64,000 nucleotides of DNA from Candidatus Ryanbacteria bacterium RIFCSPLOWO2_12_FULL_44_26 (GTDB taxonomy: Bacteria; Patescibacteriota; Minisyncoccia; Ryanbacterales; HO2-45-13), in contig MHOA01000001.1 in the NCBI GenBank assembly GCA_001821765.1, forward strand, positions 88,294 to 152,293, given 5' to 3'. The position numbers and the translations under genes were made by a program. Positions 17,145 through 59,048 of this stretch are shown in pieces; positions within the stretch are counted from its first letter, which is position 1, and each line of letters starts with the position of its first letter. The notes under the pieces are model-generated. The model saw only the letters and a program-made list of their open reading frames with translations, was not told the origin of the DNA and ran no database searches.

Positions 17145-17170
17145 ATTTATATCTTAAAAACACTAGCTGG

Positions 17171-18829: not shown

Positions 18830-18986
18830 AAAAACAAAACATTCCATTATTCTTGGGAATATTGGGATATTTTTAAATATCCATATAGTTTAAAACCAAT
18901 CTTGACGCAATAACGCATCAGTGATATTTTTTGTAGAAGCTTAGGCAGTTCATTGTCAATTGAATAACGGGGAAAAGGAGAAGTTC

Positions 18987-30888: not shown

Positions 30889-30967
30889 AATATGTAAAAT
30901 GAAAAATATATAAAAACAGGTTTTAGTTTTAGACCGTATTTAGCAGCAGATATGTTATAATGAACAT

Positions 30968-32071
30968 ATGCAGCGCAGGAGGTCTAAACACGTCGATTAT
31001 GTATTTGTTATTATTGGGGGATTCCTTCTTGTCGCAGGACTTTTTATCCTTACCTCGGCTTCTTTTGGCCTTGCTGAATTAAAATTCGACACCCCTTATT
31101 TTTACATAAGCCGTCAATTGACTGCCGTGGCTATCGGACTTGGCGCAATGTTCATTGCCTCCAAGATTCACTATCGCTTCTGGAGAAAGGCGGCTTTGCC
31201 GATTTTGATTTTTAGTGTTGGTTTGCTGCTTATTTTATTTATTCCGAAACTCGGTACGGATTATAATAAGGGGGCTGTTCGATGGTTAAGTATTGGCCCT
31301 ATTTCCTTTCAGCCGGTTGAACTTGTAAAAATCGCTTTTATTATTTACATTGCGGCATGGCTTGATGCAAAAAAGAAAGAAATAAAAAGTTTTTCACACG
31401 GATTTATCCCATTTATTTTTATTGTTTCATTTGTTGGTTTGTTTCTCGTTCTACAGCCAAACATCAGTTCTTTTATTATTATAGCCGGCGCTTCCTTGAT
31501 ACTATATTTTATCGGCGGAGGCAAATCCGCACAGATTGCCGGCGCAGTGCTGCTTGGAGGATTATTGATTGTTGGTTTTATGTATGTTGTGGATTACAAC
31601 TTCACCCGCTTATTGGTTTTCTTGCATCCAGAATCTGATCCGCTTGGAAGCGGGTATCAAATCAAACAGTCGCTTATCGCGATTGGCTCCGGTGGCATTC
31701 TTGGAAAAGGGTTTGGTCTTTCTGAATTGAAGTATAAGCATTTGCCAGAACCAGTAGGGGATTCTATATTTGCCGTTTTCTCTGAAGAACTTGGATTTAC
31801 CGGCAATCTGACACTGATTATTCTATTTTTATTTTTTTTCTGGCGTGGTATGCTGATTGCAGTACGCGCTCCAGACAGGTTTGGACAATTACTGGCTGCC
31901 GGCATTATGCTGATCATTCTTTTGCAAGTTGTGGTAAACATTGGCTCTTTTACCGGTCTTCTGCCCATTACCGGAATACCTTTGCCATTTATAAGTTATG
32001 GACGCTCAGCAATGGTCGCATTACTTGGTAGCTTGGGCATACTTCTTAATATTTCCCGCTATGCGGTATGA
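30968..32071 (+). CDS. ftsW: SEDS-family peptidoglycan glycosyltransferase, FtsW by context
   Basis: 10 TM SEDS fold; located between murD and murG. Confidence 0.8.
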   Translation: MQRRRSKHVDYVFVIIGGFLLVAGLFILTSASFGLAELKFDTPYFYISRQLTAVAIGLGAMFIASKIHYRFWRKAALPILIFSVGLLLILFIPKLGTDYNKGAVRWLSIGPISFQPVELVKIAFIIYIAAWLDAKKKEIKSFSHGFIPFIFIVSFVGLFLVLQPNISSFIIIAGASLILYFIGGGKSAQIAGAVLLGGLLIVGFMYVVDYNFTRLLVFLHPESDPLGSGYQIKQSLIAIGSGGILGKGFGLSELKYKHLPEPVGDSIFAVFSEELGFTGNLTLIILFLFFFWRGMLIAVRAPDRFGQLLAAGIMLIILLQVVVNIGSFTGLLPITGIPLPFISYGRSAMVALLGSLGILLNISRYAV

Positions 32072-32132
32072 AACGGTTGTGCAGACGTAACTGGAAAAGC
32101 GCCGTCTATTATTGAGGCATCTTTAGAAGATT

Positions 32133-33263
32133 ATGAAAATTACATTGCTTGGCGGCGGGACAGGTGGTCATTTTTATCCGCTCATTGCAATAGCTCGTGA
32201 ACTGAAAAATATAAAAAACGAAGAACACATTGTTCAGATGAATATTACACTTGCCGGTGATATATATCCGGGTGAAGAACTTTTACGAAGTGAGGAAATG
32301 TCGTTTAGAAGGGTCAGCGCAGGAAAATTCCGACGCTATTTTTCACTGCTCAACATGCTTGATATTTTTAAAACATTGTTGGGTATTTTTAAAGAATTTT
32401 GGCATTATACTACAGACCCTCCCGATATTATTTTTTCAAAAGGAGGTTATGCAAGCTTCCCTTCACTTGTTGCCGCGCGTCTTTATAAAATACCGGTGAT
32501 TATTCATGAATCAGATGCCGTTCCCGGTATTGTAAACAAATGGACTGCGCGATTTGCCGAACGAGTTGCTATCGCATTTCCTGAAGCTGTTGAATATTTT
32601 CCAAAAGAAAAAACAGCCCTCGTCGGCAATCCAATAAGAAGGTCACTGCTCGGCGGCAGTATTGAAGAAGCGCTTGATATATTCAATCTTGAAGAGGGTA
32701 TTCCGACAATCCTTATTCTTGGCGGTTCACAAGGCGCTGAAGCGTTAAATAACACTGTTCTTTCAGCTCTTGGAGATCTTCTGGTTTCTGTGCAGATAAT
32801 CCACCAAGCGGGACCGAAACTTTATAAAGCGGTTGCTAATGAAGCAATGGTGATCCTTGACCGTCTTGATAAGAATATAAAAAACCGTTATCACGTATAT
32901 CCGTTTCTTTATGAAGCAGAACTTCGTAATGCCGCTTATATCAGTGATGTCATTGTTTCAAGGGCGGGAGCCGGCGGAATATTTGAAATAGCTGCATGGG
33001 GTAAACCGTCTATTATCATACCGCTCCCGTCTTCAGCAGGAGATCATCAGCGGGAAAACGCATATAGTTATGCGCGCAGCGGCGCTTGCGAAATTCTTGA
33101 GCAAAATAATCTTACAACACACCTTTTCCAGAGCCATATTATGAAAATTGTTGATAATAAGGAAGTTGCAGAAAAAATGAAAAGAGGCGCCCAATCCTTC
33201 GCTAAGATTGATGCGGCAAAGCGGGTGGCCAAGGAGATTGTCCGTTTAGGCACGCACGAGTAA
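32133..33263 (+). CDS. murG: undecaprenyldiphospho-muramoylpentapeptide beta-N-acetylglucosaminyltransferase
   Basis: LLGGGTGGHFYPLIAIA N-terminus; GT28 C-terminal domain. Confidence 0.9.
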   Translation: MKITLLGGGTGGHFYPLIAIARELKNIKNEEHIVQMNITLAGDIYPGEELLRSEEMSFRRVSAGKFRRYFSLLNMLDIFKTLLGIFKEFWHYTTDPPDIIFSKGGYASFPSLVAARLYKIPVIIHESDAVPGIVNKWTARFAERVAIAFPEAVEYFPKEKTALVGNPIRRSLLGGSIEEALDIFNLEEGIPTILILGGSQGAEALNNTVLSALGDLLVSVQIIHQAGPKLYKAVANEAMVILDRLDKNIKNRYHVYPFLYEAELRNAAYISDVIVSRAGAGGIFEIAAWGKPSIIIPLPSSAGDHQRENAYSYARSGACEILEQNNLTTHLFQSHIMKIVDNKEVAEKMKRGAQSFAKIDAAKRVAKEIVRLGTHE

Positions 33264-34781: not shown

Positions 34782-36027
34782 ATTTGCTGTTCTTTTTGCG
34801 CTTTTACTATTTTTACCGATGTCATCGCTTCAGTCGTCAACTATTGATGAACTGAAAGACAAAATACAAGATCGAGAAAAGCAGATTTCAGATATTGAAT
34901 CGGAAATCGCTTCCTATCAAAAGACGCTTGATGAGACAGAAAAAAAGGCGAGCACGCTGAATAATGAAATTATCATCCGCGACACAAGAATAAAAAAGAT
35001 TAACGCTGATATCCGTCTTACCGAATCCAACATTAAAAAGGCTGAACTGGTCATTGAAACACTCATCCTTGAAATTTTAGATAAAGAACAAAAAATAACT
35101 GACAGGAAAGCTACGCTTGCCGAGCTAATAAGAACGATACACGAATTAGAAGGGGAGACATTAATTGAGATTTTTCTTGCAAATGAACAAATCTCTGATT
35201 TTTTCGGAGATGTTGAATATCTCCAAAACCTTGATTCGGCGATTCAAGCGAACCTGATGAATCTTAAGGATTTAAAAACGATTCTTGAGAATGAAAAAGA
35301 GTTGAATGAACGTGAGAAATCGAAATTAAGCACGCTAAGGAGCGACTTTTCGGCGAGAAAAACAATTGAAGAAAATATTAAAAAAGATAAAGCGGCATTG
35401 CTTAAAAAAACACAGCAGGAAGAAGCAAAATATCAACAGCTGCTGGATGAACGAGAAAAGGCGCGGGCAGAGATTATTGCGGAAATAAATGAAATTGAAG
35501 AACAATTGCGGTTGCTTATTGATCCTTCTCAATTACCGCCGAAAGGGACAAAGGTGCTGGCATGGCCGGTTGAAGACCCATTTATCACTCAAGGATACGG
35601 CTATACCGTGTTTGCTGTTAAACGATCAGACATCTATCAGGGAAAAGGACATAATGGAATTGATTTCCGAGCCAGCATTGGAACACCTATTCTTGCAGTT
35701 GCTGATGGCGTTGTTGTTGATACGGGAAATACTGATCTTACTTGTCTAGGCGGATCATATGGAAAATGGATTGTTATAAAACATAGTAACAACCTTGCAA
35801 CCGTTTATGCGCACCTTTCTCTTATAAATGTTAAAAAAGGACAGGAAGTAAAAAAGGGAGAAAGCATCGCTTACAGCGGAGATTCCGGCTATACGTTAGG
35901 ACCTCATCTTCATTTTACCGTCTATGCCGCAAATACGCTTCGTTTTGCGCCGTCTCCAAGCGGGAGATGCCGATATCAGCCCTATGGAGGCCCGATAGAT
36001 CCATTAGATTACCTTCCGTCAATTTAA
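34765..36027 (+). CDS. M23 family peptidase with N-terminal coiled coil (EnvC/NlpD-like)
   Basis: Signal peptide, long coiled coil, C-terminal HNGIDFRA...GPHLHF M23 motifs. Confidence 0.8.
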   Translation: MLKRYKFAVLFALLLFLPMSSLQSSTIDELKDKIQDREKQISDIESEIASYQKTLDETEKKASTLNNEIIIRDTRIKKINADIRLTESNIKKAELVIETLILEILDKEQKITDRKATLAELIRTIHELEGETLIEIFLANEQISDFFGDVEYLQNLDSAIQANLMNLKDLKTILENEKELNEREKSKLSTLRSDFSARKTIEENIKKDKAALLKKTQQEEAKYQQLLDEREKARAEIIAEINEIEEQLRLLIDPSQLPPKGTKVLAWPVEDPFITQGYGYTVFAVKRSDIYQGKGHNGIDFRASIGTPILAVADGVVVDTGNTDLTCLGGSYGKWIVIKHSNNLATVYAHLSLINVKKGQEVKKGESIAYSGDSGYTLGPHLHFTVYAANTLRFAPSPSGRCRYQPYGGPIDPLDYLPSI

Positions 36028-36066
36028 TTGGAATTTATTTGAGCCGTGTAATATAATATAAGCGAT

Positions 36067-36351
36067 ATGATTCGTTTGCTGATAATATTTGTATTAGTTG
36101 TTGTTTTACTAAGTCTGCTTGGGGTAAATATTGTTTCATTGTTAAATAACAAAACCTTGCGTGACAATTTTAGTTTTATTTGGAACTGGACAAAACATAT
36201 CTGGATTACATATCTTAAAGCGCCCGTTGCGCGTGCGGCAATTTTTATCTGGGAAGAGGGAATAAAGCCGGTTTTTCAGCTGCTCAAAGACCGCAATAAT
36301 GCGAGTAACGAAGGGGATGCGCGCATAGGACGCACTATATCCATTACTTGA
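36067..36351 (+). CDS. hypothetical small membrane protein
   Basis: 94 aa, one N-terminal TM. Confidence 0.4.
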   Translation: MIRLLIIFVLVVVLLSLLGVNIVSLLNNKTLRDNFSFIWNWTKHIWITYLKAPVARAAIFIWEEGIKPVFQLLKDRNNASNEGDARIGRTISIT

Positions 36352-36359
36352 AGTTTTGA

Positions 36360-36660
36360 AGTTCAGTCTGCTTATAGGTCGCCAAAGGTATATTGTGCGA
36401 CCTAGGCGATGAGGGGTTTCCTAGGATGCGCCACGATTCACGATCTCGCTGCGGCGAGGGTTCCGACACCTCCCTCCCCGCCTGTGGGTGAGTTTGTCGA
36501 GCAGTGAGAGAAGTTCCCTCGAGCCGCGCCCTGTAAAGGGTGGAGGGAGGACGCCGAGTTTGCGTTTTGGAGTCGGCGGTGCTCGCCGACTAGAAAAACT
36601 CGACGCCCTTCCACAAAGGAAAGGCCGGTACGCTGATAGCGTACCGGCCTTTTTTACTTC
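36360..36660 (+). ncRNA. GC-rich structured RNA candidate ending in an intrinsic terminator (class unassigned)
   Basis: About 60% GC island with no credible ORF; helices AGGTCGC...GCGACCT, CCTCCCTCC...GGAGGGAGG, GAGTCGGCG...CGCCGACT; 12-bp GC hairpin plus T6 at 36623-36655. Confidence 0.35.
36620..36656 (+). terminator. strong rho-independent terminator
   Basis: GGCCGGTACGCT-gat-AGCGTACCGGCC followed by T6. Confidence 0.7.
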
Positions 36661-36687
36661 AGTCACAGTCAAGCGATGTGTCGGAAA

Positions 36688-36729
36688 TAAAAAAAGCTTG
36701 TTGATACTGTGATCACAAGCTTTTTTTGG
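36688..36729. terminator. bidirectional terminator
   Basis: A7-AAGCTTGT...ACAAGCTT-T7. Confidence 0.6.
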
Positions 36730-36744
36730 TATGGCTCCTCTTCT

Positions 36745-37044
36745 TTACCGCGCTATTACGCAGTACTCCCTTACGGCTCGTAAGGCCATATTGAAATGAC
36801 GCTGGTCAAAATCATCCGGGAACCGCTGTTTCAGCTCCATACAAAGATCCTCTGTTTTCACTTCCCCAGCCACAAGTACGCGCTCTAGAAGTGCTGTTTT
36901 GTAGAATGTGATGGGATAGATACGCATCTGATGTGTGAGATCCCGATGATCTTCAAGCAGGCACTGATACTCATTCAGTTTTCTTTTTGCTCTGTTTATT
37001 CCCCTACTGCTCTTTGGAAGCAAATACGTCAAAATTCCCCCCAT
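36745..37044 (-). CDS. hypothetical protein (99 aa)
   Basis: ORF with terminator downstream; no recognisable motif. Confidence 0.45.
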   Translation of the reverse strand: MGGILTYLLPKSSRGINRAKRKLNEYQCLLEDHRDLTHQMRIYPITFYKTALLERVLVAGEVKTEDLCMELKQRFPDDFDQRHFNMALRAVREYCVIAR

Positions 37045-37347
37045 TCTCGCAAATGCGATTTTTGTTTCGGTGAAAGTTTAACACAATATCTGTTTTCTGT
37101 CAATCAAGGAACATACACAACACAAGAAAAAGCAGGAAGCAACAAAACGACACGACAATCGTCTCAAGCGTACTTTTCCTCCCCTGTTGGTCTGATAAAG
37201 AACATATAAGAAACTGATACCGTCGTCAACATTACAGTTTCTGTGAATAATTGATTAGCGGCTTATCTCTACGTTAAATAGAATATAAAAAGAAATGAGC
37301 TTGCTGAGCAGGTTTTTTTCTTTTTTCCAACACGGTACAATGTTTCT

Positions 37348-38511
37348 ATGCGAACGAGTTATTCGGCGTTGGATACATACAAACAGTGCCCTAAAAAATA
37401 TAAATTTCAGCAAATTGACAAAATAAAAATTCCAAAGACAAAGGAAGCCGTTTTTGGCACGCTCGTGCATGAATCGTTAAAATTCATGTTTTCCCGAGAC
37501 CCTCTCTTCCCTACTCTTGAAGAAGTGCTGGCATCTTTTAGAGAAAAATTGGCCGAATCTCCAATAAAAAATGAGGATAAAGAACGATATGGGGAAGCCG
37601 GAATGGAAATGCTTAGAAAATTTTGGAAGAAAAATCCCCCATGGAACTTTAACGTGATAGACACTGAATCAAGGTTTGAAGTGACATTAGACGACAACAC
37701 GAACAAAACCACACATGTGCTCGCGGGAATCATTGACCGCATTGACACGCCGTCTGAAAGCACTTATGAAGTAATTGATTATAAAACCTCAAGAAAACTC
37801 CCGTCTCAAAAATATGTTGATGAAGATTTACAGCTTTCTTTATATCACTTAGCCATCACAAAACGCTGGCCCCACACAGATCCGGACTATATTATTCTTT
37901 CTCTTTATTACCTGAAAGCCGGTGAAAAACTTTCCACTAAAAGGAGCGGCGGGGCATTAAAAACGACTGAAGAAAAAGTTCTGGAAAAGATTCATGCCAT
38001 TGAAGAAAAAATAAAGAGTGACGATTTCCCGCCAAAACCTTCTGCTCTTTGCAATTGGTGCGGCTACAGACCTATTTGTCCCGCGTGGAAACATCTTTAT
38101 CAAAAGAAAAAAGACGCAAGCCCGCAAGATATAGAAATAGAAAGGGTCATTGACGATTTTTTGGAGCTGAAACAAAAATCAGAGGAAGATAAAAAAAAGA
38201 TTGCCGAACTTGCTGACAAAATAAATGTATATATGGATTTAGAAAAGGTTGAACGTTTATTTGGCAAAAAAAATATTATTTCACGCAGCATTCAGGAACG
38301 CACTGAATGGAGCATAGATGAAGTAAAAGAAATTCTCCAACCGCTTGGCCTATGGGAGGAAATTCTTAGCGCCGATATAAAAAAATTAAACGCGCTTTTT
38401 TCAAAACTCCCCGCACAAACCAGAAAAAAGCTTCAAGAAAAAGCCATAAAACTGAAGCGGTTTACCGCGCTTAAAGTTTTAAAAAAGAAAGTCTCGCCGC
38501 CTGACGAATAG
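37348..38511 (+). CDS. PD-(D/E)XK nuclease, RecB/Cas4-like with Fe-S Cys cluster and helical C-terminal extension
   Basis: N-terminal YSALDTYKQCPKKYKF, IDRID..VIDYKT core, C-terminal CNWCGYRPICPAW (C..CxxCx5C). Confidence 0.7.
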   Translation: MRTSYSALDTYKQCPKKYKFQQIDKIKIPKTKEAVFGTLVHESLKFMFSRDPLFPTLEEVLASFREKLAESPIKNEDKERYGEAGMEMLRKFWKKNPPWNFNVIDTESRFEVTLDDNTNKTTHVLAGIIDRIDTPSESTYEVIDYKTSRKLPSQKYVDEDLQLSLYHLAITKRWPHTDPDYIILSLYYLKAGEKLSTKRSGGALKTTEEKVLEKIHAIEEKIKSDDFPPKPSALCNWCGYRPICPAWKHLYQKKKDASPQDIEIERVIDDFLELKQKSEEDKKKIAELADKINVYMDLEKVERLFGKKNIISRSIQERTEWSIDEVKEILQPLGLWEEILSADIKKLNALFSKLPAQTRKKLQEKAIKLKRFTALKVLKKKVSPPDE

Positions 38512-40353: not shown

Positions 40354-41257
40354 TTATTGAACATATGTCAGCCATTTTTTATATGCCTTCCTCTCCCCTT
40401 TTACAATTTCTTCAAAATATGTTTTTACTCTTAACGTAACCGGACCGATGTTACCGTTATTGATAATTTTTTTGTCTATTTTTCCAACCGGCGTCACCTC
40501 CGCAGCAGTGCCCGTAAGAAAACATTCGTCGGCTTTATAGCAATCCTTCAGGTGAAACTTTTTTTCTCTTGCGCGTATTTTTAAATCTTTTGCAATTTGT
40601 ATAACGGCATTTCTTGTAATACCCGGCAAAATGTTGCCGAGGGGCGGAGTGCATAAGACGCCGTTTCGCACTATAAAAATGTTTTCTCCGGAACCTTCCG
40701 CCACAAAACCTTGTTGGGTAAGCAGCAATGCCTCATCATAACCGGCTTTTCTCGCTTCAAGGTGGGCTAAAACAGAATTGACATACGGTCCGCTTATTTT
40801 CGCGTTTGGGTTAAAAGACATCGGACTAAAACGCCTTATGTTTGCTGTTTTTATCTTTACTATCTGTTTCTTTAAATACTTTCCCCATGGAAGCACTATG
40901 ACTGCCAGATGCACTTTTGTTTTTTTTAGGATGAACTCCAAGAGCGCTTTTACCATAGAACATAATGGGTCTTATGTAGCCGGTTTGCAGTTTTTGGGCT
41001 TTTACGGTATCAATAACAGCTTTTTTGATACTTGAAGCTATCCATCTTGGTTTCATCCCAAAGGAATGGGCAGAATATATAAGACGCTTTATATGTTCGT
41101 CCAGCCGAAACACCGCGCTTCCGCTTTTGGTTTTATAAAATCTGATTCCTTCAAATGCCGCCGTCCCGTAGTGTAACGAATGGCTAAGCAAACTGATTCT
41201 TGCTTTGCTTTCTGGTCTTAATGTTCCATCAATCCAGATCATAAATATGTATTGCAA
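40354..41257 (-). pseudogene. ilvE: branched-chain amino acid aminotransferase split by a single-base frameshift in a homopolymer
   Basis: ORF 40826-41257 = BCAT N-terminus (GTAAFEGIRFY..RLDEHIKRL); ORF 40354-40956 = BCAT C-terminus (EGSGENIF..ILPGITR..TGTAAEV); frames differ by 1 across an A8 run (plus-strand T8 at 40920-40927); removing one base restores ..GVHPKKTKVHLAVIVLPWGKYL.. colinear with E. coli IlvE. Confidence 0.7.
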
Positions 41258-41276
41258 ATTTTATGCTAAACATTCT

Positions 41277-41996
41277 TTACGAACAGGTCGTCTTGCCCGC
41301 AAAAGGGGCTCCAAGCGCGGTATCGGCGCTGTCCACATCCCCATCGCCATCCCAGTCAGCATCAATACATTGAGGAAAAGCAGTCAAATCTGCACCCTCA
41401 CATGTTGTACGAAAATCGTTTAACTCTTGAACAGTAATATTTCCATCATGATCATTATTCTTATCCATCATAAGGTTTTGGTGAGTAAACACCCAGTACG
41501 GCCGCAAGGGGTTTTCCAATACTCCCCGCAGTAAATATCCCCTGCCGTCTTTACAGGGTTTATACATGTAATAGTGTGTTTTAGCGCCAGCGCCTGATGG
41601 ATCGGTCGGTAACTTGCTGATATATCCAGCATCAACCAACGGTTGCAAGTTGCTTGAAGAATACCAATAATCTCCGGGGGACGGGCCTGCGCTACTCCCC
41701 GGCCCTAAAGGACCAATGTCGCAATGGTCACCGACAGTAGATGATCGAAACCAGCCGAGGCTTGAGTCACAGTAATAATAGGGTTGGGTAAAGTTGCTGA
41801 AGGGGTAGTTATTTTGATCATTGTGATAAAATTCCAGTGCTTTTCGTATCTCTCTAAGATCTAAAATTCTTCTTGTGTCTCTTGCTTTTGACCGGAAACC
41901 GCTTACCGAAGGCGTAATAATGCTCGCCAACAAGGCAAGGATCGTTATAACAATTAACAATTCCAACAATGTAAATCCGTCCTCCTTTTTTTGCAT
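41277..41996 (-). CDS. type IV pilin-like protein (prepilin N-terminus) with C-terminal EF-hand/dockerin-like Ca-binding module
   Basis: MQKKEDG^FTLLELLIVITILA class III signal; C-terminus DKNNDHDGNITVQELNDF...DADWDGDGDVDSADTALGAPFAGKTTCS. Confidence 0.75.
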   Translation of the reverse strand: MQKKEDGFTLLELLIVITILALLASIITPSVSGFRSKARDTRRILDLREIRKALEFYHNDQNNYPFSNFTQPYYYCDSSLGWFRSSTVGDHCDIGPLGPGSSAGPSPGDYWYSSSNLQPLVDAGYISKLPTDPSGAGAKTHYYMYKPCKDGRGYLLRGVLENPLRPYWVFTHQNLMMDKNNDHDGNITVQELNDFRTTCEGADLTAFPQCIDADWDGDGDVDSADTALGAPFAGKTTCS

Positions 41997-42221
41997 TAAA
42001 TAAAATGAAGAAACAGCAAACCTATCTCTTTCACGCTAAAACCGGCCATGACAAGATAAGACATTGCCGAATAAGATGGGTATCCATATTTTAAGTATAT
42101 TCTTTACATAGCCCTTAAGCGAATGAAACCGCACTTCACATTGCTTATGAGAAGACAATATGTTGACGCACACAGGAATTGAGCCCGTGTTTCTGTTATC
42201 CGTCCATTACATTGAATCCTG

Positions 42222-42293
42222 TGACCCCTAGGGGAGTCGAACCCCTGTTTCATCCGTGAGAGGGATGCGTCCTAACCACTAGACGAAAGGGCC
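42222..42293 (-). tRNA. tRNA-Glu (anticodon CUC)
   Basis: Minus-strand cloverleaf GGCCCUU-UC-GUCU..AGGAC-G-CAUCC-CUCUCAC-GGAUG..AGGGG-UUCGACU-CCCCU-AGGGGUC-A. Confidence 0.85.
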
Positions 42294-42444
42294 ATACATT
42301 GAACGGATAAACGGATGCGCCATCAACATTTCTCACTTGGTGAAAATAAAAATGATTTTGTTTTAAGAGATTTTGAAAGAGGAGTAAACTACTACAGTAT
42401 AAAATATACACGCTTTTCTCCCAGATTTCAAATTTGAACATTAT

Positions 42445-43191
42445 TTACGAACATGTTGCCTTACCCGCAAAAGGGGCTCCAAGCGCGGTATCGGCAATGT
42501 CCACATCCCCATCACCGTCCCAGTCCGCATGAATGCATTCAGGGAAAGTGGATAAATTTGCCCCCTCACATGTTTTATAAGCAGTTAACTCTCCAGCAGT
42601 AATCGTTCCGTTATTATCCTTATCCATCATAAGGTTTTGGTGAGTAAACACCCAGTGCGGCCGTAAGGGATTTTCCAATACTCCCCGCAGTAAATATCCC
42701 CTGCCGTCTTTGCAGGGTTTATACATGTAATAGTGTGTTTTAGCGCCAGCGCCTGATGGATCGGTCGGTAACCTGCTGATATGTCCATTAACAACCAACG
42801 GTTGCAGGTTGCTCGTTGAATACCAATAATCGCCGGGGACTGGTTGGCCAGGATTAGACCCCGGCCCTAAAGGACCGATATAGCAATGATCAGAGGGAGA
42901 ATTTGATTGAAACCAGCCAAGGCTTGAGTCACAGTAACCATTTGGTGCAGTAAAGTTGCTGAAGGGGTAGCCACCAACGTCCACATTGTAAATTTCCAAA
43001 GCACGCCGTATTTGCATAAGGTCTGTAATTCTTCTGGCATTGCGCCCTTCCTGAAACCTTTTCAGCGGATTTAACGTGACAAAGATCATCCCTGCGATAA
43101 TGGCAGTAATTGAAATCACTATTAACACCTCAAGAAGCGTAAAGCCTTTTTTGCCGATAAAAAGGCGAAACCTATCAATGAATCTAAGCAT
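42445..43191 (-). CDS. type IV pilin-like protein, paralog of 41277-41996
   Basis: MLRFIDRFRLFIGKKG^FTLLEVLIV; canonical EF-hand loop DKDNNGTITAGE plus DADWDGDGDVDIADTALGAPFAGKATCS; start chosen at internal Met to abut murF stop. Confidence 0.75.
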   Translation of the reverse strand: MLRFIDRFRLFIGKKGFTLLEVLIVISITAIIAGMIFVTLNPLKRFQEGRNARRITDLMQIRRALEIYNVDVGGYPFSNFTAPNGYCDSSLGWFQSNSPSDHCYIGPLGPGSNPGQPVPGDYWYSTSNLQPLVVNGHISRLPTDPSGAGAKTHYYMYKPCKDGRGYLLRGVLENPLRPHWVFTHQNLMMDKDNNGTITAGELTAYKTCEGANLSTFPECIHADWDGDGDVDIADTALGAPFAGKATCS

Positions 43192-44500
43192 GAATGTGTA
43201 GGTTCTTTTTTTTCCAATAAGACTCCTGACGCACAAGAAGCGTTTCTGCTTGTGTATGATCCGCCATAACCGCTTCAGTTATTTTTTCCATCCTCATCGC
43301 CTGTGAACCCTTAATGAGCACAATCGTCCCCCTGCTTATCAGTTCATGGAGTTTTTTCCCGGCCTCGTTGGAATTTGAAAATTCAAAAATCTTTTCTTTA
43401 TCCATTCCCGCTGTAATTGCTCCTTCCGCTATAAACTTGGCGCGCGTTCCCACAACAAGCAATAAAGAACAAACAGTGCCCGCTTTTACGCCAATTGCGC
43501 GATGTTCCTGCACGGTGTATTTACCTATCTCCAACATATCCCCAAGCACCGCTATTTTTGCGTGAGTCGGCAGTTCCTCAAGCACTTCCAGAGCAGCTTT
43601 CATAGAAAGTGGCGAAGCATTATACGTGTCATCTAAAATGATGGAATGTTTCATACCCTCAATGAGTTTTAAACGTCCCGGAGACGCTTCATAATGGGAA
43701 AGCGCTTCTCCGATTTCAAGAAGATTTATGTTCCGTGAAATACCCGTAGCCGCCGCAGCCAGCGCGGCATAGACATGTTGTTTTCCTATAACTCCCGAGA
43801 TGCGTATAGGCAAAACATTTCCTTTATAGATAAGTTTGAACGTGATTCCCAAAGGAATCAAATGCCCTTCCTCTTTTTTTAAAGTAACCGCATAATTTGA
43901 AGCCTGTACGTGAGCTTTTTCATCAAAACCATACGTTAAAACAATTGCCGGCGTCTTATCCGCCAGCCCACGCACCGCAGGATCATCAAAATTGAGAATG
44001 GCATACCCATACATATCAAGCGGCCGCAAAATCTTTGATTTTTCATCAATGACTTCCTGCGGGCTCTGAAAGTATTCAACATGCACCGGAACCTCCCCAA
44101 TTGCTGTTATAACCGCAGTAGAAGGACGAATAATTTTAAGCAACATGTCAAGATTTCCGGGACGATCAATGCCCATCTCCAGCACAAATATTTCGGGATA
44201 TGGTTTAAAAGAGAACGCTCTTATCAGTCCCGCAAAAATATTTATAAACCATCCCATCGGCGAGCGAAAAGGGCTTGGGAGGCCTAACATTGCCAAAGGG
44301 ACTCCGATTTCACTATTATAGCTTTTTGGGCTTTTCGCGACTTTATAGCGGCTTTTTAATACCGTATAAATCGCCTCTTTCGCGGATGTTTTCCCCACAC
44401 TTCCGGTCACACCGATAATTGAAGGCTTAAACCGAAAAAGCACTATTTTCATTTCAATGTGCAAGATCCACAAAATAATTTTCTTAAAGATTTTTATCAT
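43184..44500 (-). CDS. murF: UDP-N-acetylmuramoyl-tripeptide--D-alanyl-D-alanine ligase
   Basis: GVTGSVGKTS P-loop, SYNSEIGVPLAML MurF hallmark. Confidence 0.8.
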   Translation of the reverse strand: MIKIFKKIILWILHIEMKIVLFRFKPSIIGVTGSVGKTSAKEAIYTVLKSRYKVAKSPKSYNSEIGVPLAMLGLPSPFRSPMGWFINIFAGLIRAFSFKPYPEIFVLEMGIDRPGNLDMLLKIIRPSTAVITAIGEVPVHVEYFQSPQEVIDEKSKILRPLDMYGYAILNFDDPAVRGLADKTPAIVLTYGFDEKAHVQASNYAVTLKKEEGHLIPLGITFKLIYKGNVLPIRISGVIGKQHVYAALAAAATGISRNINLLEIGEALSHYEASPGRLKLIEGMKHSIILDDTYNASPLSMKAALEVLEELPTHAKIAVLGDMLEIGKYTVQEHRAIGVKAGTVCSLLLVVGTRAKFIAEGAITAGMDKEKIFEFSNSNEAGKKLHELISRGTIVLIKGSQAMRMEKITEAVMADHTQAETLLVRQESYWKKKNLHIHA

Positions 44501-46191
44501 AATCTGTCAGGCGGAATTTCATAATATGAAAGCACGAATTGCATAAGTTCCCTGAAGGGCTCTGTGAGCGACTGGGAAGCATACCGTACGCCAACCGGCC
44601 TTTCAATATACATGTATATAAATACATGTGGATCAAAGGCGGGAGCAAAACCAACAAAAGAATGGATAAAATCTTCAGAATATCCTCTTGATTCCTTTAA
44701 TGGAACTTGCGCCGTGCCTGTTTTCGCAGCAACAGAGTATCCGGGTATTGCCGCTTTACCGTCATACAGTTTTTCATCAACAATATCCACCATCATCCGC
44801 GTAACAGTACGGGCAGCTTCTTCTGAAATAACCCTTCTTTTTATTTCCATAGAAGAATGATGCGTCTTATCTTCAGGTGTTTGTATTTTCTCCACAACAT
44901 ACGGTTTTAGCAAATTTCCTCCATTGGCAACCGCAGAGAGAGCCATGGTGATTCCTATTGGGGATACACTAATCCCCTGCCCAAAGGAAGCCGTCGCGTA
45001 CTCAATAGAACGGGGAGAATTGAGATTTTGGATATTGCCAGCAACTTCTCCCATAAGATCAATGCCCGTTTTTTCTCCAAGTCCAAACGCTCTGACATAT
45101 TCTCTAAATGTTTCCTTTCCCAATGCTTGCGCGACAAATACAGCGCCGGTATTGAGCGAATTCAACAATACCTGCCTTATATCAATATACCCTCTGCCTT
45201 TCGCGTCAAAGTTTTTTATTATATAATCATCAATTTCTATTTTCCCTGCATCAAAATATGTCGTATCCGGCGTAATGACCCCCTTATCAATACCTGCGGC
45301 AATGGTGATTGGTTTAAAAACCGATCCCATCTCAAAAATATGCTGTGTAAGCGGATTTACAAAAACACCGACATTTTCCGTATCATAATACTCATTGGGG
45401 TTATATGTTGGGTAAGCTGCCATGGCGATAATCCTGCCGGTCGTGGGATTAAGGACAATGATGCCTCCTCTTTCCGATTCCCATTTTTGAAGTGTTTGTT
45501 CCAGGATATATTCAGCAGTGGTCTGTACGGCAATATCAATGGTCAATATTAAGTCTCCCCCGCCGCTTTTATAGGTAATGGGGTTTTTAAAAAACGAAGC
45601 AATGCCGCCGTTGTTGCGGCTCATATTGAGCGCTGAACCATTCATGCTTAGCAAACTGTCATAGTACTGTTCAACGCCATATCTTCCTTTCATGCCTTCT
45701 TCACCGGAACCCACAAAGCCGAGTACGTGCGCCGCGAGCGATTCTCCCGGATAATAGCGAAGATTTTCTGTAATAAATACAATGCCCTCCGGAGCGTCCT
45801 TTTCAACCAATGCTTTTGTTTCAGCGTTTACCCTCCGCAGAATAATCTCAAACGGATCATCCTTCAAGGCTTTTTTATAAAACACGTCTTTATCAATCTT
45901 AAAAAAATTACTGAGATGAGCATATACTCTATCGGGATCTTTTACTGCCCGGGCATTAATGGCAAGCACGTAGAAAGGCTTTTCAGTTGCCGCAAGAAAA
46001 AGAGCGTCTTTGCTTTGAAAATAAATTCGTCCCCGTTCTTTTAAGGGACTGTGTTGTTCCTGCTGTTGATTATGAGAAAGTGCCTTGTATTGCTCTTTGT
46101 GTAAAACCTGCAAGTATACAAGGCGGCCCAGAATGACGACGAACACCAGTAAGAAAATCCACTGAATGATGTTAATCCGTGCCGGTCTCAT
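44497..46191 (-). CDS. ftsI: penicillin-binding protein (FtsI-type transpeptidase)
   Basis: SVFK, SLN, KTGTAQ; N-terminal TM; dcw operon position. Confidence 0.85.
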   Translation of the reverse strand: MRPARINIIQWIFLLVFVVILGRLVYLQVLHKEQYKALSHNQQQEQHSPLKERGRIYFQSKDALFLAATEKPFYVLAINARAVKDPDRVYAHLSNFFKIDKDVFYKKALKDDPFEIILRRVNAETKALVEKDAPEGIVFITENLRYYPGESLAAHVLGFVGSGEEGMKGRYGVEQYYDSLLSMNGSALNMSRNNGGIASFFKNPITYKSGGGDLILTIDIAVQTTAEYILEQTLQKWESERGGIIVLNPTTGRIIAMAAYPTYNPNEYYDTENVGVFVNPLTQHIFEMGSVFKPITIAAGIDKGVITPDTTYFDAGKIEIDDYIIKNFDAKGRGYIDIRQVLLNSLNTGAVFVAQALGKETFREYVRAFGLGEKTGIDLMGEVAGNIQNLNSPRSIEYATASFGQGISVSPIGITMALSAVANGGNLLKPYVVEKIQTPEDKTHHSSMEIKRRVISEEAARTVTRMMVDIVDEKLYDGKAAIPGYSVAAKTGTAQVPLKESRGYSEDFIHSFVGFAPAFDPHVFIYMYIERPVGVRYASQSLTEPFRELMQFVLSYYEIPPDRL

Positions 46192-46237
46192 TTATATTTA
46201 AACCTTTTTAAAAGAAAAAAATAAGAAAAAAGCAGGT

Positions 46238-46549
46238 TCAATTTGAAGATTCGGAAAGAAAACCGAATCTATGCGTTCTTCTCACAAATACTGGTTTTGT
46301 TTCCTGCACAAGGTCTGTGTTTTTAAGATATATCGTGGTTTTTGTTGTTGATAATTCAATATATTCAGCTTCAGCGGCGGTTGACACCAACGATGTTTCA
46401 TGTAAGACCGATTTTTTTTCTTTTAAGTCTAAAGCGATCACCATCCCTTGTTGTATTTGAAACAACCATAACATGATCAGCACAATAATGAGAATAATTC
46501 CCGTGAGCGTTTTCGCCGGTATGATGCGCTTTTTCATAGTCGTTCCCAT
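46238..46549 (-). CDS. ftsL: FtsL-like small membrane division protein
   Basis: 103 aa, single TM, position between rsmH and ftsI. Confidence 0.5.
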   Translation of the reverse strand: MGTTMKKRIIPAKTLTGIILIIVLIMLWLFQIQQGMVIALDLKEKKSVLHETSLVSTAAEAEYIELSTTKTTIYLKNTDLVQETKPVFVRRTHRFGFLSESSN

Positions 46550-47433
46550 ACTCGAAGCAACGCCGAGCGCGCCCTTGCGTTTATCATGACCTCGCTCCTA
46601 GTTGGCCGTTTTGCATGCTTCGTAATTATTTTTCCAAAAGCATTTTTTTCGTACTCTTTAAATGTTTCTTTCACTATTCTATGTTCAAGCGAATGAAATG
46701 AAATGACTACTACTCTTCCTCCTTTACCAACGACATGACATGCGGCTTGAAGTCCTTGGCGAAGGTTTTCCAGTTCTTTGTTGACTTTTATTCGAAGCGC
46801 CTGAAATGTTTTGGTTGCAAAGTAAATTTTTTTTCTTTTATACCATTGAGGCACGGCTTCTTTGATAATATCCACCAGATCAAACGTGGTTTGAATATTT
46901 CCTTTTTTCCTCGCATGACAAATAGCTTTTGCGATCTGCGGGGCAAATTGTTCTTCCCCATATGTTTTCAAAATTGTTTTGATTGTCTGATAGTCTGAAG
47001 AATTTACAATATCCGCAGCCATCATATCAATGTCTTTTGAAAAACGCATATCAAGCGGCTCATTTTTCTTAAATGAAAACCCTCTTTGAGATCGCTCAAC
47101 ATGAAAAGAACTTAACCCTAAATCAAACAATATGCCCTTTATGGGTTGGATTCCATATTTCTTGATAATGCTTTTCATATGTATATAGTTATTGTTTTCG
47201 ATAATTAAATTGTCGTTTTCCGGAATGAACGGGATAATGCTTTCATCTTGTTCAATACCCAATACTTTTCCATTTGGCTTTATTTTTTCTAAAATTATTC
47301 TTGCATGCCCGCCGCCGTCAATGGTCGCATCTATAAAATTTTCATTTGGTTTGGGGTCTAAAAAATAAATAACTTCTTTTTGCATTACCGGCGTATGAAG
47401 CTCGTCTTGCACAACACTCACATTCAACCACAT
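46534..47433 (-). CDS. rsmH: 16S rRNA (cytosine1402-N4)-methyltransferase
   Basis: HTPVMQKEV..FIDATIDGGGH. Confidence 0.9.
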   Translation of the reverse strand: MWLNVSVVQDELHTPVMQKEVIYFLDPKPNENFIDATIDGGGHARIILEKIKPNGKVLGIEQDESIIPFIPENDNLIIENNNYIHMKSIIKKYGIQPIKGILFDLGLSSFHVERSQRGFSFKKNEPLDMRFSKDIDMMAADIVNSSDYQTIKTILKTYGEEQFAPQIAKAICHARKKGNIQTTFDLVDIIKEAVPQWYKRKKIYFATKTFQALRIKVNKELENLRQGLQAACHVVGKGGRVVVISFHSLEHRIVKETFKEYEKNAFGKIITKHAKRPTRSEVMINARARSALLRVWERL

Positions 47434-47438
47434 CTACA

Positions 47439-47873
47439 CTAATACAGGCCCTGTTGGCCAAGTTCTTCGGCAAGCTCATCGGCTCTTTTTTCTGAAGTGG
47501 AGTTATACTGATTCCATTTTTCCTCATCCCAGATCTCCGCTCTTGTATAAACACCGGTAATGACAACTTTTTTGTTAAGACTGGCATAATTTTTTAAATG
47601 TTCAGGAATAAGGATTCTTCCTAAACTGTCAATTTCAGATTCCCCTGCCCCGGAAAGCATTATTCGCACAAATTGACGAATCTTGGGTTGACCAATTGAA
47701 AGATGACTTAGTTTCTGTGCTATGGCTTGCCATTCTTCAATGGAATATATGAATAAACACTGATCAAGGCCTCTTGTGATGATTATTCTGTCTCCCAGTA
47801 CTTTTCGCATTTTTGCCGGAATAGAAACTCTTCTTTTCTTATCAATACTGTGTTTGTATTCTCCAATAAGCAT
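47439..47873 (-). CDS. mraZ: transcriptional regulator MraZ
   Basis: Two DxxxR-type repeats (SIDKKRRVSIP / LDSLGRILIP). Confidence 0.85.
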   Translation of the reverse strand: MLIGEYKHSIDKKRRVSIPAKMRKVLGDRIIITRGLDQCLFIYSIEEWQAIAQKLSHLSIGQPKIRQFVRIMLSGAGESEIDSLGRILIPEHLKNYASLNKKVVITGVYTRAEIWDEEKWNQYNSTSEKRADELAEELGQQGLY

Positions 47874-53177: not shown

Positions 53178-54233
53178 TTATGTAAACGAGACCTCTTCAG
53201 AAGTTTCGTCAATTAAGACATTTTTTAAATGGTCAATATCTTCCAAAACAATCCCTGTCCCTCTCACAACAGCTGTTACCGGATCATCAGCAACATGTAC
53301 TGGAATTCTTGTTTCTCTCTCAAAAAGTATATCAAGTCCGCGCAGCTGCGATCCTCCTCCCACCAACACAATGCCCCTGTGTATGATATCGGCCACCAGC
53401 TCCGGCGGGGTAACTTCGATTGTTTCTTTGACTGATTTTACCAATGCATGCACTGAATTTTTAAGCGCTTCCCTGACATCCGCGTCCGTCACAAGCACTT
53501 CCCTTGGAAGGCCGGAAATGAGATCCCGTCCGCGCATTGTTGCCTCCAGTTCTTCACTCTGGGTAACCGCGGAACCAATGGCAATTTTCAGATCTTCAGC
53601 AGTTCGTTCTCCTATAACGATCTTAAATTCGTTTCTTGCAAAATCTATAATATCCGCATTCATTCGATCTCCGGCAACGCGGAGATTTTTTGAAGCAACA
53701 ATGCCGCCAAGGGATATCACCGCTATATCACTCGTACCCCCCCCAATATCAACAATCATATTGCCAACAGGTTCCTGGACTTCAAGTCTCACGCCAATTG
53801 CTGCCGCCATGGGTTCGTCGATCAAAAACACTTGCCGAGCGCCAGCTGATTTTGCCGCATCAATAACTGCTTTGCGCTCTACTTCTGTAATGCCGGACGG
53901 CACGCCAATAACAACGCGCGGACGCGCCAGCCGCCGGACATAACTGCCATGCACTTTATGTATAAAATGCATAATCATTTCCTCCGTTATTTCAAAATCA
54001 GAAATCACACCTTCTATCAGTGGCCTGTGGGCGACGATGTGTGATGGAGTTCTGCCAACCATTCGTTTTGCATCAGACCCAACCGCAACGACTTTGCCGG
54101 TTTTTTGATTCACAGCAACCACAGAAGGCTCATTAATAACAATTCCACGACCAGCAACGTATACCAGTGTATTAGCGGTCCCGAGGTCAATGCCTATGTC
54201 GTTTGAAAAAATACTAAATAACGAATTAAACAT
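53178..54233 (-). CDS. mreB: rod shape-determining protein MreB
   Basis: IGIDLGTANTLVYV, actin-fold phosphate motifs DIGGGTSD, GGGS. Confidence 0.9.
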   Translation of the reverse strand: MFNSLFSIFSNDIGIDLGTANTLVYVAGRGIVINEPSVVAVNQKTGKVVAVGSDAKRMVGRTPSHIVAHRPLIEGVISDFEITEEMIMHFIHKVHGSYVRRLARPRVVIGVPSGITEVERKAVIDAAKSAGARQVFLIDEPMAAAIGVRLEVQEPVGNMIVDIGGGTSDIAVISLGGIVASKNLRVAGDRMNADIIDFARNEFKIVIGERTAEDLKIAIGSAVTQSEELEATMRGRDLISGLPREVLVTDADVREALKNSVHALVKSVKETIEVTPPELVADIIHRGIVLVGGGSQLRGLDILFERETRIPVHVADDPVTAVVRGTGIVLEDIDHLKNVLIDETSEEVSFT

Positions 54234-58025: not shown

Positions 58026-59048
58026 CTATCGCTTCAGCAGTATGCTCTTTTTATATGCTTCCAGATGCTCAAGCGCCGTACCACAACCTTTTGCAACACA
58101 CAACAGCGGATCATTTGCAACAGACGCTGAAACGCCGGTTGAACGGTAGACAAGCTCTTCAATATTTCTAAGAAGTGAACCGCCGCCTGTCATAACAATG
58201 CTTTCTGATATAATATCAGCCGAAAGCTCCGGCGGCGTATTCTGCAAGGTGGTTTTAATAGAACGGATGATATCATCAAGACATCCCTGAATCGCTTTTA
58301 CTACTTCGTTGGTTGAAATATCAGCACTTCGCGGGAGCCCAGTGAGAATATCCCTCCCCTTAATAGTACAGACCAACTCCTCTTTTACCGGTATTGCCGA
58401 CCCAACGGCAATCTTTATTTCCTCTGCAGTGCGCTCGCCAATGGCAAGATTGAGATGTTCTTTAATATGATCGGCAATGGCCTGATCAATTTTATCACCA
58501 GCTACTTTTACAGAATTTGATGTTACAATTCCTCCAAGAGCAATGACGGCGGAATCGGTCGTGCCTCCTCCGATATCTACCACCATATACCCTCGCGGCT
58601 CGTGGATTGGAATGCCCGCCCCGATAGCTGCAAGAATCGGCTCTTTCACCACATACGCCGATTTTGCACCGGCTTTCATAGCTGCTTCCACAACCGCCCT
58701 TCTTTCGGTTGAGGTGACTCCGGCAGGAACGGATACCATGACATCGGGTTTAATAATGTTAAAGCGTCCCAGCGACTTAGATATAAAATAATTCAACATT
58801 GCTTCAGTTACCCGATAGTCCGCTATAACACCGTTTTTTAAAGGCCGATACGCAATAATGTTCTCTGGAGTGCGCCCGATCATGATTTTTGCCTCATTAC
58901 CTACCGCAAGCACCTTCTTAGACCCCACAGAAACGGCAACGACCGATGGCTCATTAATACAGACTCCTTTTTGCGGCACAAACACGAGTGTATTTGCCGT
59001 TCCAAGATCAATGCCGAGTTTTCTGATAAATAACGCCATATTATCCAC
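58026..59048 (-). CDS. MreB-family actin homolog (second paralog)
   Basis: LGIDLGTANTLVFV, DIGGGTTD, GGGS. Confidence 0.85.
   Translation of the reverse strand: MDNMALFIRKLGIDLGTANTLVFVPQKGVCINEPSVVAVSVGSKKVLAVGNEAKIMIGRTPENIIAYRPLKNGVIADYRVTEAMLNYFISKSLGRFNIIKPDVMVSVPAGVTSTERRAVVEAAMKAGAKSAYVVKEPILAAIGAGIPIHEPRGYMVVDIGGGTTDSAVIALGGIVTSNSVKVAGDKIDQAIADHIKEHLNLAIGERTAEEIKIAVGSAIPVKEELVCTIKGRDILTGLPRSADISTNEVVKAIQGCLDDIIRSIKTTLQNTPPELSADIISESIVMTGGGSLLRNIEELVYRSTGVSASVANDPLLCVAKGCGTALEHLEAYKKSILLKR

Follow-up and report, generated by a model that had tools for sequence, protein, structure and literature searches.

Tandem type IV pilins with a predicted dockerin-type calcium-loop module in a Candidatus Ryanbacteria bacterium

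Results

Two neighbouring pilin genes separated by a tRNA gene

The window, the whole stretch of 64,000 nucleotides that was analysed, derives from a groundwater Candidatus Ryanbacteria (Parcubacteria/CPR) bacterium and carries two neighbouring pilin genes on its minus strand. The downstream paralog (41277..41996) is an open reading frame of 239 amino acids plus stop and the upstream paralog (42445..43191) one of 248 amino acids plus stop, taking as its start the ATG at 43191 that is used in public gene calls; the open frame of the upstream copy runs on to a TTG at 43236 (42445-43236, 263 aa). The two proteins share 70% identity (E 3e-123). A protein identical to the downstream copy (P0001) is present in public data from Candidatus Ryanbacteria, and UniRef labels the upstream copy an 'EF-hand domain-containing protein'.

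As a class III signal peptide we counted a short leader ending in Gly, followed by Phe at +1, Glu at +5 and a hydrophobic stretch of ~20 residues. The leader comprises 7 residues in the downstream copy (MQKKEDG, then FTLLELLIV) and 16 in the upstream copy (MLRFIDRFRLFIGKKG, then FTLLEVLIV), and in both proteins the junction reads G/FTLLE, so that the mature form has Phe first and Glu fifth and continues into a hydrophobic stretch. Both also pass Pfam N_methyl (PF07963; downstream 32.6 bits, upstream 29.8, cut-off 21.2), which bears out the assignment, made in an earlier note on this DNA, to type IV pilins with class III signal peptides. Solved pilins and GspG match the N-terminal ~60 residues, and the pilin core is T2SS-G-like with a KLPxDP motif; the GspG family (PF08334) itself fails with 14.2 and 12.2 bits against a cut-off of 21, its match being limited to the alpha1-C region. 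The AF2 model of the downstream copy (pLDDT 77.9, pTM 0.73) consists of an alpha1 helix (10-61) plus a beta-sheet with strands 143-147, 154-161 and 164-170, that is, a lollipop fold of the pilin type, and a Foldseek search of the PDB with the full model returned weak matches only, to pilins (1ay2, 6t8s; E 0.1-1) and to a scaffoldin complex. Judged by their sequences, both proteins are type IV pilins.

At the end of an mraZ-mraW-ftsI-murF operon there is an 8-nt overlap between the murF stop codon and the ATG of the upstream copy, which is probably co-transcribed with this operon. Within the 448-nt spacer separating the two pilin genes, and on the same strand, lies a tRNA-Glu with anticodon CUC (42221..42293, minus strand; ARAGORN, and Rfam RF00005 with 60.2 bits). 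It had been placed exactly between the copies; between them it is, but only roughly central, starting 151 nt past the upstream stop and ending 224 nt before the downstream start. The Rfam scan of the spacer found no RNA element besides this tRNA, and a promoter and terminator scan gave counts not above those of shuffled sequence. One TTGAAA-17-TATATT site is located upstream of tRNA-Glu. A genomic island at the tRNA was considered and rejected, as the window has neither an integrase nor a second copy of the tRNA 3' end, and its composition does not shift.

Neither a cohesin domain nor PilB/C/D/M genes were found in the window and its 10-kb flanks (84 kb in all). The idea of a pilus system encoded at the locus is accordingly not supported, nor is a functional link to an NHL/TSP3 protein, which lies 20 kb away on the opposite strand, with no cohesin found.

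Direct repeats and a gene-conversion patch

Three blocks of the two genes are repeated in direct orientation at a start-to-start distance of 1159-1168 nt: a near-identical core of 226 nt at 93% identity (41454-41679 versus 42613-42838, minus strand), a second block at 85% (41269-41409 versus 42437-42577) and a third at 79% (41684-41808 versus 42846-42970). The core had been recognised before, with its second coordinate about 11 nt off. Synonymous divergence between the copies is mosaic: the 5' end has values of 0.4-0.6, the core of 0.05-0.1 (Fisher p = 8e-4). This suggests that the gene was duplicated long ago and that the copies later acquired a gene-conversion patch, which the near-identical core appears to represent. 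Within the C-terminal half, the paralogs differ most in the linker and first helix of the module (pN ~0.28), and the N-terminal helices have diverged as well.

Contigs that run from the upstream copy, or from its 3' end, across the tRNA into the downstream copy, with 99.8-100% identity, come from NCBI GCA_001819895.1, three JGI samples and four ENA assemblies, and a separate contig extends from murF through the upstream copy into the tRNA. Every contig read, across multiple samples, has the two copies in the same order, with 0-2 SNPs over the pilin genes and spacer. The same arrangement in independent assemblies means that the tandem paralogs are real; for a duplication created by assembly only the generic risk of repeats in metagenome assemblies could be put forward, whereas the copies differ by 30% in protein, their flanks are unique and several independent assemblies span both, so that this explanation is refuted.

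A direct repeat of 226 nt at 93%, with a conversion patch showing that the copies exchange sequence, could also suggest that the pair acts as a recombination cassette, either deleting or amplifying the tRNA unit frequently or generating antigenic variation in the manner of pilE/pilS. We consider this highly improbable: the two-copy order with its 0-2 SNPs is kept in all contigs read and no hybrid gene occurs among them, and both copies are complete with their own signal peptides, neither being a silent cassette. Deletion or amplification of the tRNA unit, as the earlier note had predicted, is seen in no assembly, and the repeats show gene conversion instead. The shorter cluster members P0171-P0173, candidates for hybrid or recombinant alleles, turned out to be fragments of the upstream copy.

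A C-terminal module with two predicted calcium loops

The module spans residues 181-248 of the upstream copy (42448..42651, minus strand), as delimited by motif scan, Pfam, calmodulin alignment and hhalign, and residues 172-239 of the downstream copy (41280..41483, minus strand). As canonical EF-hand loops we counted those of the form DxDxNGxIxxxE in paired hands, a pattern shown by loop 1 of the upstream module, DKDNNGTITAGE (42589-42624, minus strand). Its counterpart in the downstream module, D178-E191 (41424-41465, minus strand; DKNNDHDGNITVQE), comprises 14 residues owing to a 2-residue insertion and has Asn in place of the usual Asp. The C-terminal strings described earlier are present, but a 12-residue loop 1 is restricted to the upstream copy. 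Loop 2 is DWDGDGDVDIAD in the upstream module (42490-42525, minus strand) and D214-D225 in the downstream one (41322-41357, minus strand). Measured against the dockerin repeat, defined as two repeats of ~22 residues, each with a 12-residue loop carrying Asp or Asn at positions 1, 3, 5, 9 and 12 and then a helix, loop 2 (DWDGDGDVDxAD) fits fully with Asp at all five positions, while loop 1 is EF-hand-like, having Thr at position 9 and Glu at position 12. In the downstream module Cys199 and Cys210 bracket the linker, and Cys238 is close to the C-terminus.

Pfam thresholds are missed by both window modules. For Dockerin_1 (PF00404, cut-off 22.9) the upstream module scores 10.1 bits (E = 1) and the downstream module has no match; for EF-hand_1 the upstream module misses narrowly (24.6 bits against 25.4), with 19.8 against 30 for EF-hand_7, and the downstream module stays under both cut-offs (10.6 and 12.8 bits). 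The two loops of the upstream module align with a calmodulin EF-hand pair at E 3e-7, the dockerin 2y3n_B is matched at E 1.4e-11, and by sequence the window modules match calmodulin EF-hand pairs about equally well as dockerins. Comparison with 22 PF00404 proteins by hhalign gave 91% for the two window modules alone and 99.15% for the family, and 38 of the 39 matches in a search with the module profile were PF00404 proteins. In the fold search dockerins were the best structural matches, ranked over calmodulin-like domains, and the predicted module has a dockerin fold, the entering helix of the first EF hand being short in the model. Thus, of the two-repeat dockerin module proposed earlier, predicted fold and profile homology uphold the assignment, but the Pfam thresholds for Dockerin_1 and EF-hand_1 do not. 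By profile comparison and model, the C-terminus is a ~65-residue module belonging to the EF-hand superfamily, of dockerin type in both descent and predicted fold. Probably, the terminal Cys ties it back onto the pilin sheet, in which case the module would occupy the place of the disulfide-bounded D-region in classical pilins. The predicted disulfide pairs are C76-C92, C199-C210 and C148-C238.

Relatives of the two proteins

An exhaustive phmmer search of 1.84 billion representatives retrieved ~10 full-length relatives with the same C-terminal module, and six cysteines are conserved across the family. Dockerin_1 is passed by three of the nine relatives scanned (P0015 with 36.4, P0016 with 31.5 and P0019 with 40.4 bits, against 22.9), and two further ones reach 22.4-22.7 bits. 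No close relatives were found in the GTDB species genomes scanned. A profile of the pilin core yielded 2896 relatives, of which those with a named source nearly all belong to Patescibacteria/Parcubacteria lineages. The genes of relatives are orphans amid housekeeping genes, with no cohesin, pilus operon or partner gene adjoining.

Genes of the division and wall machinery do recur beside the family, as P0015 lies directly after ftsA-ftsZ, P0021 adjoins ftsW and the upstream copy of the window follows murF. Together with the wide distribution of competence systems in CPR (PMC6744442), this might indicate subunits of a short competence-type or wall-spanning pseudopilus (endopilus) tied to neighbouring envelope and division genes, and not of a long adhesive pilus. 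However, P0016 and P0020 lack division or wall neighbours, competence pilins are usually small and without grafted modules, and adjacency to division genes is weak evidence in CPR genomes, which are small and dense in housekeeping genes. We therefore regard such an endopilus as very unlikely.

Discussion

Our best explanation, to which we assign a probability of roughly 60%, is that the locus encodes two paralogous modular type IV pilins, whose dockerin-like modules would be displayed on the filament in calcium-loaded form and dock to a protein partner. Each protein would consist of three parts, namely a class III signal peptide, a T2SS-G-like core (alpha1 helix and small beta-sheet) and the ~65-residue C-terminal module, the latter built on a plan of two 12-residue calcium loops with a helix after each and a short linker between them, flanked by two conserved cysteines. 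The pair would have originated from an old, lineage-specific tandem duplication whose spacer carries tRNA-Glu; later, gene conversion would have homogenised the middle of the genes, while the N-terminal helices and the first module helix diverged. The subunits would be processed by prepilin peptidase and polymerised by a type IV pilus machine, with the genes for both at another place in the genome, and the filament would then present the calcium-loaded modules to a surface protein of the own cell or of a host, which might be cohesin-like or of another kind.

What the module does, calcium-dependent docking or plain structural stabilisation, is a matter that we infer, and the second function has its own case. 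The calcium loops could be purely structural, a 'clasp' stabilising the pilin C-terminus and the filament with no cohesin-like partner involved. The T2SS-G-like core, with its KLPxDP motif and weak PF08334 matches, would be in keeping with such a role; furthermore, the major subunit of T2SS endopili is stabilised through a conserved calcium site (PMC13081927). Likewise, no cohesin occurs in the 84 kb or beside the relatives, and the conserved cysteines suggest a module stapled to the core and not one on a free linker. Yet a full two-repeat module of ~65 residues is far larger than a structural calcium site would require, nearly all of the 120 core relatives listed, among the ~2900 found, are shorter proteins (~130-230 aa) that do without it, and the divergence of the first module helix and linker suits a diversifying surface better than a scaffold. 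A purely structural role is, to our judgement, possible but doubtful; were it correct, the pair would be an ordinary, lineage-specific pilin variant.

At the other end, docking could be taken further. If the pilins are major subunits, a dockerin would be displayed at every subunit, and the filament might serve as a 'pilus scaffold' that recruits cohesin-like enzymes or adhesins along its length or latches onto a cohesin-like protein of the host. We hold this quite unlikely; should it be true, an episymbiotic CPR bacterium would attach by cohesin-dockerin pairing with two paralog-specific specificities.

The current view is that CPR/Patescibacteria rely on pili for reaching and holding host cells, and beyond Saccharibacteria we know of very few pilins with any predicted binding chemistry. 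In Saccharibacteria host binding is mediated by type IV pili (PMC11623550), and across CPR both type IV pilus components and a disulfide oxidoreductase are widely distributed (PMC6744442). The 'novel CPR pilus' of a 2026 preprint (10.64898/2026.03.03.709456) is a donor-strand-exchange pilus and unrelated. For the preferred reading of a docking pilin, the module could help an ultra-small bacterium to attach to a partner, and a dockerin-type calcium module on a pilin gives a concrete, testable handle on a Parcubacteria lineage without a cultured member. In addition, the pair is a case of pilin paralogs evolving in concert within a reduced genome.

Comparison with known systems

Exchange of sequence between repeated pilin genes, resulting in mosaic identity, is known from Neisseria pilE/pilS. 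The window pair resembles it in its mosaic, but consists of two complete, expressed-type genes, its exchange homogenises a conserved core instead of diversifying a variable region, and contigs from multiple samples show no population variation. With the major pseudopilins of the T2SS (GspG/PulG) the proteins share the T2SS-G-type core and, by prediction, calcium ligands at the C-terminal end of the subunit; GspG, however, has one short loop where the window proteins have a two-repeat module. A Gram-negative envelope is reportedly absent from CPR bacteria (PMC6744442), in which case a T2SS would have no outer membrane to cross.

The module itself stands between two families. Like calmodulin-type EF-hand pairs (PF00036 / PF13499), the upstream module has a canonical loop and a two-loop spacing that fits a calmodulin lobe, but it falls under the Pfam cut-offs, its first entering helix is short in the model, and the protein is extracellular and cysteine-rich. 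Like cellulosomal type I dockerins (PF00404; PDB 2vn5_B, 2ccl_B, 2y3n), it is predicted to have tandem calcium loops with a helix after each; in contrast to them, the window modules remain below the Pfam threshold, carry Glu at position 12 of loop 1, and possess a conserved disulfide-type Cys pair in the linker plus a C-terminal Cys. Moreover, their fusion partner is a pilin where cellulosomal dockerins have an enzyme; no cohesin is known for them, and the organism is not cellulolytic.

To our knowledge, no pilin carrying a dockerin-like double calcium loop has been studied, and among matching titles and abstracts of a full-text literature search for dockerin and 'type IV pilin' there was no pilin-dockerin fusion. 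IPR002105 is presumably the dockerin repeat entry. [quoted passage not shown] The earlier impression of a type not recognised as described is thus not supported. By sequence, both window proteins fall under the modular-pilin definition, having the N_methyl motif and a dockerin/EF-hand-type C-terminal module, and the pair is a rare pilin-dockerin form, already catalogued but unstudied. The modular pilins of Streptococcus sanguinis likewise join an N-terminal pilin module (IPR012902 motif) to an extra binding module, a metal-dependent vWA module in PilB and a lectin module in PilC (PMC8179133). The window module differs in being small (~65 aa) and a dockerin-like double calcium loop, and since its cysteines apparently staple it to the core, it would not be a bulky domain on a linker as in S. 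sanguinis; the catalogue of modular pilins would thereby gain a small, disulfide-stapled module type.

A tandem pair of pilin genes

As the earlier note had proposed, two tandem minus-strand genes encode type IV pilin-like proteins, namely a downstream copy (ORF 41277-41996, 239 aa) and an upstream copy (ORF 42445-43236, 263 aa counted from TTG; 248 aa in public gene calls, which start at the ATG at 43191). Both score above threshold for Pfam N_methyl and have a class III signal peptide at the N-terminus (MQKKEDG/FTLLELLIV downstream, MLRFIDRFRLFIGKKG/FTLLEVLIV upstream), which among the ORFs of the window is confined to these two. The two proteins share 70% identity (E 3e-123), and their genes are direct repeats of each other in the DNA, spaced by 1159-1168 nt. 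Their near-identical core is real, with 226 minus-strand nt at 93% identity (41454-41679 versus 42613-42838), although the second coordinate first assigned to it was off by about 11 nt. A tRNA-Glu(CUC) on the pilin strand (42221-42293) lies within the 448-nt spacer, roughly centrally and not exactly midway as first described.

At 99.8-100% identity, contigs from NCBI, JGI samples (three) and ENA assemblies (four) extend from the upstream copy, or from its 3' end, through the tRNA into the downstream copy; the NCBI assembly compared was GCA_001819895.1, a Candidatus Ryanbacteria member of the Rifle aquifer series (RIFCSPHIGHO2_02_FULL). On one more contig, which differs by two SNPs, murF is linked to the upstream copy and a portion of the tRNA. 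Since the same arrangement recurs in contigs from all three sources, an assembly artefact was rejected, and both copies and the tRNA are real. The suggestion that recombination would delete or amplify the tRNA-containing unit found no counterpart in the assemblies, and no hybrid single-copy allele occurred among cluster members.

A probable old duplication with gene conversion

Approximate synonymous divergence in 30-codon windows reaches 0.4-0.6 in most of the first ~80 codons, drops to 0.05-0.1 at residues ~111-180, and stands at 0.25-0.39 at residues ~181-223. Codons for identical amino acids differ in 7 of 63 cases within the core versus 33 of 96 elsewhere (Fisher p = 8e-4). This mosaic is consistent with a core homogenised by gene conversion after an old duplication; selection acting only on the protein would not produce it. 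The most diverged part of the pair is the alpha1 helix, unusual among pilin paralogs. The similarity of the repeats breaks off at most ~10 nt from the stop codons and, at the other end, close to where the signal peptide is cleaved, so the duplicated unit was essentially the coding sequence; furthermore, relatives elsewhere are single-copy orphans, and thus the tandem state is lineage-specific. A genomic island was also considered and rejected, as there was no tRNA 3'-end repeat, no integrase and no compositional shift.

Pilin core and distribution

Both proteins match solved pilins and GspG over their first ~60 residues, and the AF2 model (pLDDT 77.9, pTM 0.73) predicts an alpha1 helix of 52 residues followed by a hairpin, a three-stranded sheet and three C-terminal helices. 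A family profile search retrieved 2896 proteins with coverage limited to the pilin core; the 120 listed are nearly all pilins of ~130-230 aa, and those with a named source belong almost entirely to Patescibacteria/Parcubacteria lineages. When the globular part was searched exhaustively with phmmer against 1.84 billion representatives, no more than 42 matches reached E <= 1e-3, and about ten of these (P0013-P0021) were full-length, C-terminal module included. The full architecture is therefore rare. Six cysteines are kept across the full-length relatives (C76, C92, C148, C199, C210 and C238 in the downstream copy).

Neighbourhoods of these relatives were read from a JGI contig (sample 3300075153) and the loci L014 and L018. 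P0015 directly follows ftsA-ftsZ, P0021 is convergent with ftsW, and a thioredoxin-reductase-like (Pyr_redox_2) gene lies within 1.5 kb of both P0015 and P0020; such adjacency may be a coincidence of small genomes.

A dockerin-type module with two calcium-loop motifs

The C-terminal strings quoted in the earlier note are all there, but the canonical 12-residue loop is that of the upstream copy (DKDNNGTITAGE), whereas the downstream string (DKNNDHDGNITVQE) has 14 residues. Taken alone, the window sequences are borderline between EF-hand and dockerin. The upstream copy reaches 24.6 bits for Pfam EF-hand_1 (cut-off 25.4) and 10.1 bits for Dockerin_1 (cut-off 22.9), and the downstream copy scores lower still; a single-sequence PDB search matched the two loops to a calmodulin lobe (E 3e-7), and UniRef names the protein 'EF-hand domain-containing'. 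Loop 1 has the Glu of EF-hand type at position 12, and loop 2 (DWDGDGDVDxAD) is patterned like a dockerin loop, Asp occupying positions 1, 3, 5, 9 and 12.

Family-level evidence points to a dockerin. Three of nine scanned relatives with a homologous module pass Dockerin_1 (36.4, 31.5 and 40.4 bits) and two further ones reach 22.4-22.7 bits. A ten-module profile matched the cellulosomal dockerin 2y3n_B (1.4e-11) about as well as calmodulin (7.5e-12), and retrieved 39 of 5.8 billion proteins, 38 of them annotated PF00404. Against 22 of these dockerins, hhalign scored the family at 99.15%; restricted to the two window modules, it still reached 91% (E 1e-6, 57 columns across both loops). Thus, although both window sequences fail formal Pfam membership, the earlier reading of a dockerin-type module was essentially right: it is an EF-hand superfamily member, dockerin-type in both its descent and its predicted fold, and somewhat diverged in this lineage.

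Genomic neighbourhood

The minus-strand block runs mraZ, mraW, ftsI, murF, pilin, tRNA-Glu, pilin, with the pilins at its end, and beyond them lie a frameshifted class IV aminotransferase gene and one for a cytidylyltransferase. The murF stop codon and the upstream pilin ATG overlap by 8 nt, which suggests co-transcription. The division/cell-wall (dcw) cluster forms two convergent halves, mraY-(amidohydrolase)-murD-ftsW-murG (26865-33263, +) and mraZ-mraW-ftsI-murF (43184-47873, -), the pilins ending the latter. The IlvE-like aminotransferase directly downstream (40354-41257, -) consists of two overlapping ORFs (40826-41257 and 40354-40956) whose frame changes in an A-rich run; the same split (calls of 138 and 155 aa) in the JGI and ENA contigs with gene calls there shows that it is genuine, whether a frameshift, a pseudogene or a programmed shift. 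Two short metagenome contigs leave the window sequence inside this gene (L006 beyond 40669, L005 beyond 40839), L006 running into a different allele of it, which suggests strain heterogeneity or chimeric contigs.

Elsewhere, the region ~36000-38000 looks like a replication terminus, with a change of GC skew sign, converging gene orientation and ~1.3 kb (36028-37347) with no ORF of at least 120 aa. Two MreB paralogs stand 4 kb apart (53178-54233 and 58026-59048, both -) with mreC and a second PBP2-type transpeptidase. A low-GC patch at 16-18 kb (0.317 versus ~0.42) holds an FeeM/autoinducer-synthase-like N-acyltransferase adjoining a 7TM histidine kinase (16512-18829, +). A secreted protein (18960-20936, +, 658 aa) with NHL beta-propeller repeats, TSP3 calcium-binding repeats and one dockerin-like repeat (GDVTDDGAMNVLDVAILQRHLEGL) had been tied to the pilins; it lies 20 kb away on the opposite strand, and nothing connects them.

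A model for pilus-borne docking

Starting from what is directly supported (pilin signal, predicted pilin fold, two calcium-loop motifs, dockerin-type homology, conserved cysteines, and tandem genes with gene conversion), we propose that the pilins would be cleaved by a PilD-type peptidase and assembled by type IV pilus machinery whose genes lie elsewhere. Type IV pilus components are widespread in CPR, and so is an MdbA-like oxidoreductase for which a role in pilin folding has been proposed (PMC6744442). Three disulfides (C76-C92, C199-C210 and C148-C238) could form, the last tying the module to the sheet at the site of the D-region in classical pilins; with both loops presumably calcium-loaded, the module would be displayed on the filament and dock to a protein partner.

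A serious rival is that the module merely acts as a structural calcium clasp. A calcium site of this kind is described for T2SS endopili (PMC13081927), and no cohesin turned up in Pfam scans of the other large window ORFs or in gene tables covering 10 kb on each side. These scans and tables showed housekeeping genes only, with no PilB/C/D/M/T. However, the short core relatives among those listed lack the module, and module helix 1 and the linker diverge fastest in the C-terminal half of the paralogs, both of which speak against a purely structural role.

Comparison with known systems

Among titles and abstracts from a full-text search for dockerin and 'type IV pilin', no pilin-dockerin fusion was described. 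For the comparison below, we take IPR002105 to be the dockerin type I repeat entry. Raynaud et al. 2021 defined modular pilins, in which a functional module is grafted onto a pilin module, and their survey counted more than 1,200 such proteins in 264 architectures; its Dataset S1 holds the architecture IPR012902-IPR002105-IPR002105 in two proteins (PMC8179133). Furthermore, Saccharibacteria have two distinct type IV pili, whose minor pilins are lectin-like, and use them for host binding and motility (PMC11623550), so the general idea of a binding module carried by a pilus is not new for CPR. Thus the pair, although initially thought to represent an undescribed type of system, is no new kind: its function is putative and its architecture already catalogued, and it offers a testable lead on CPR attachment chemistry as an uncharacterised addition to the known modular pilins, with which it shares the pilin-plus-grafted-module build.
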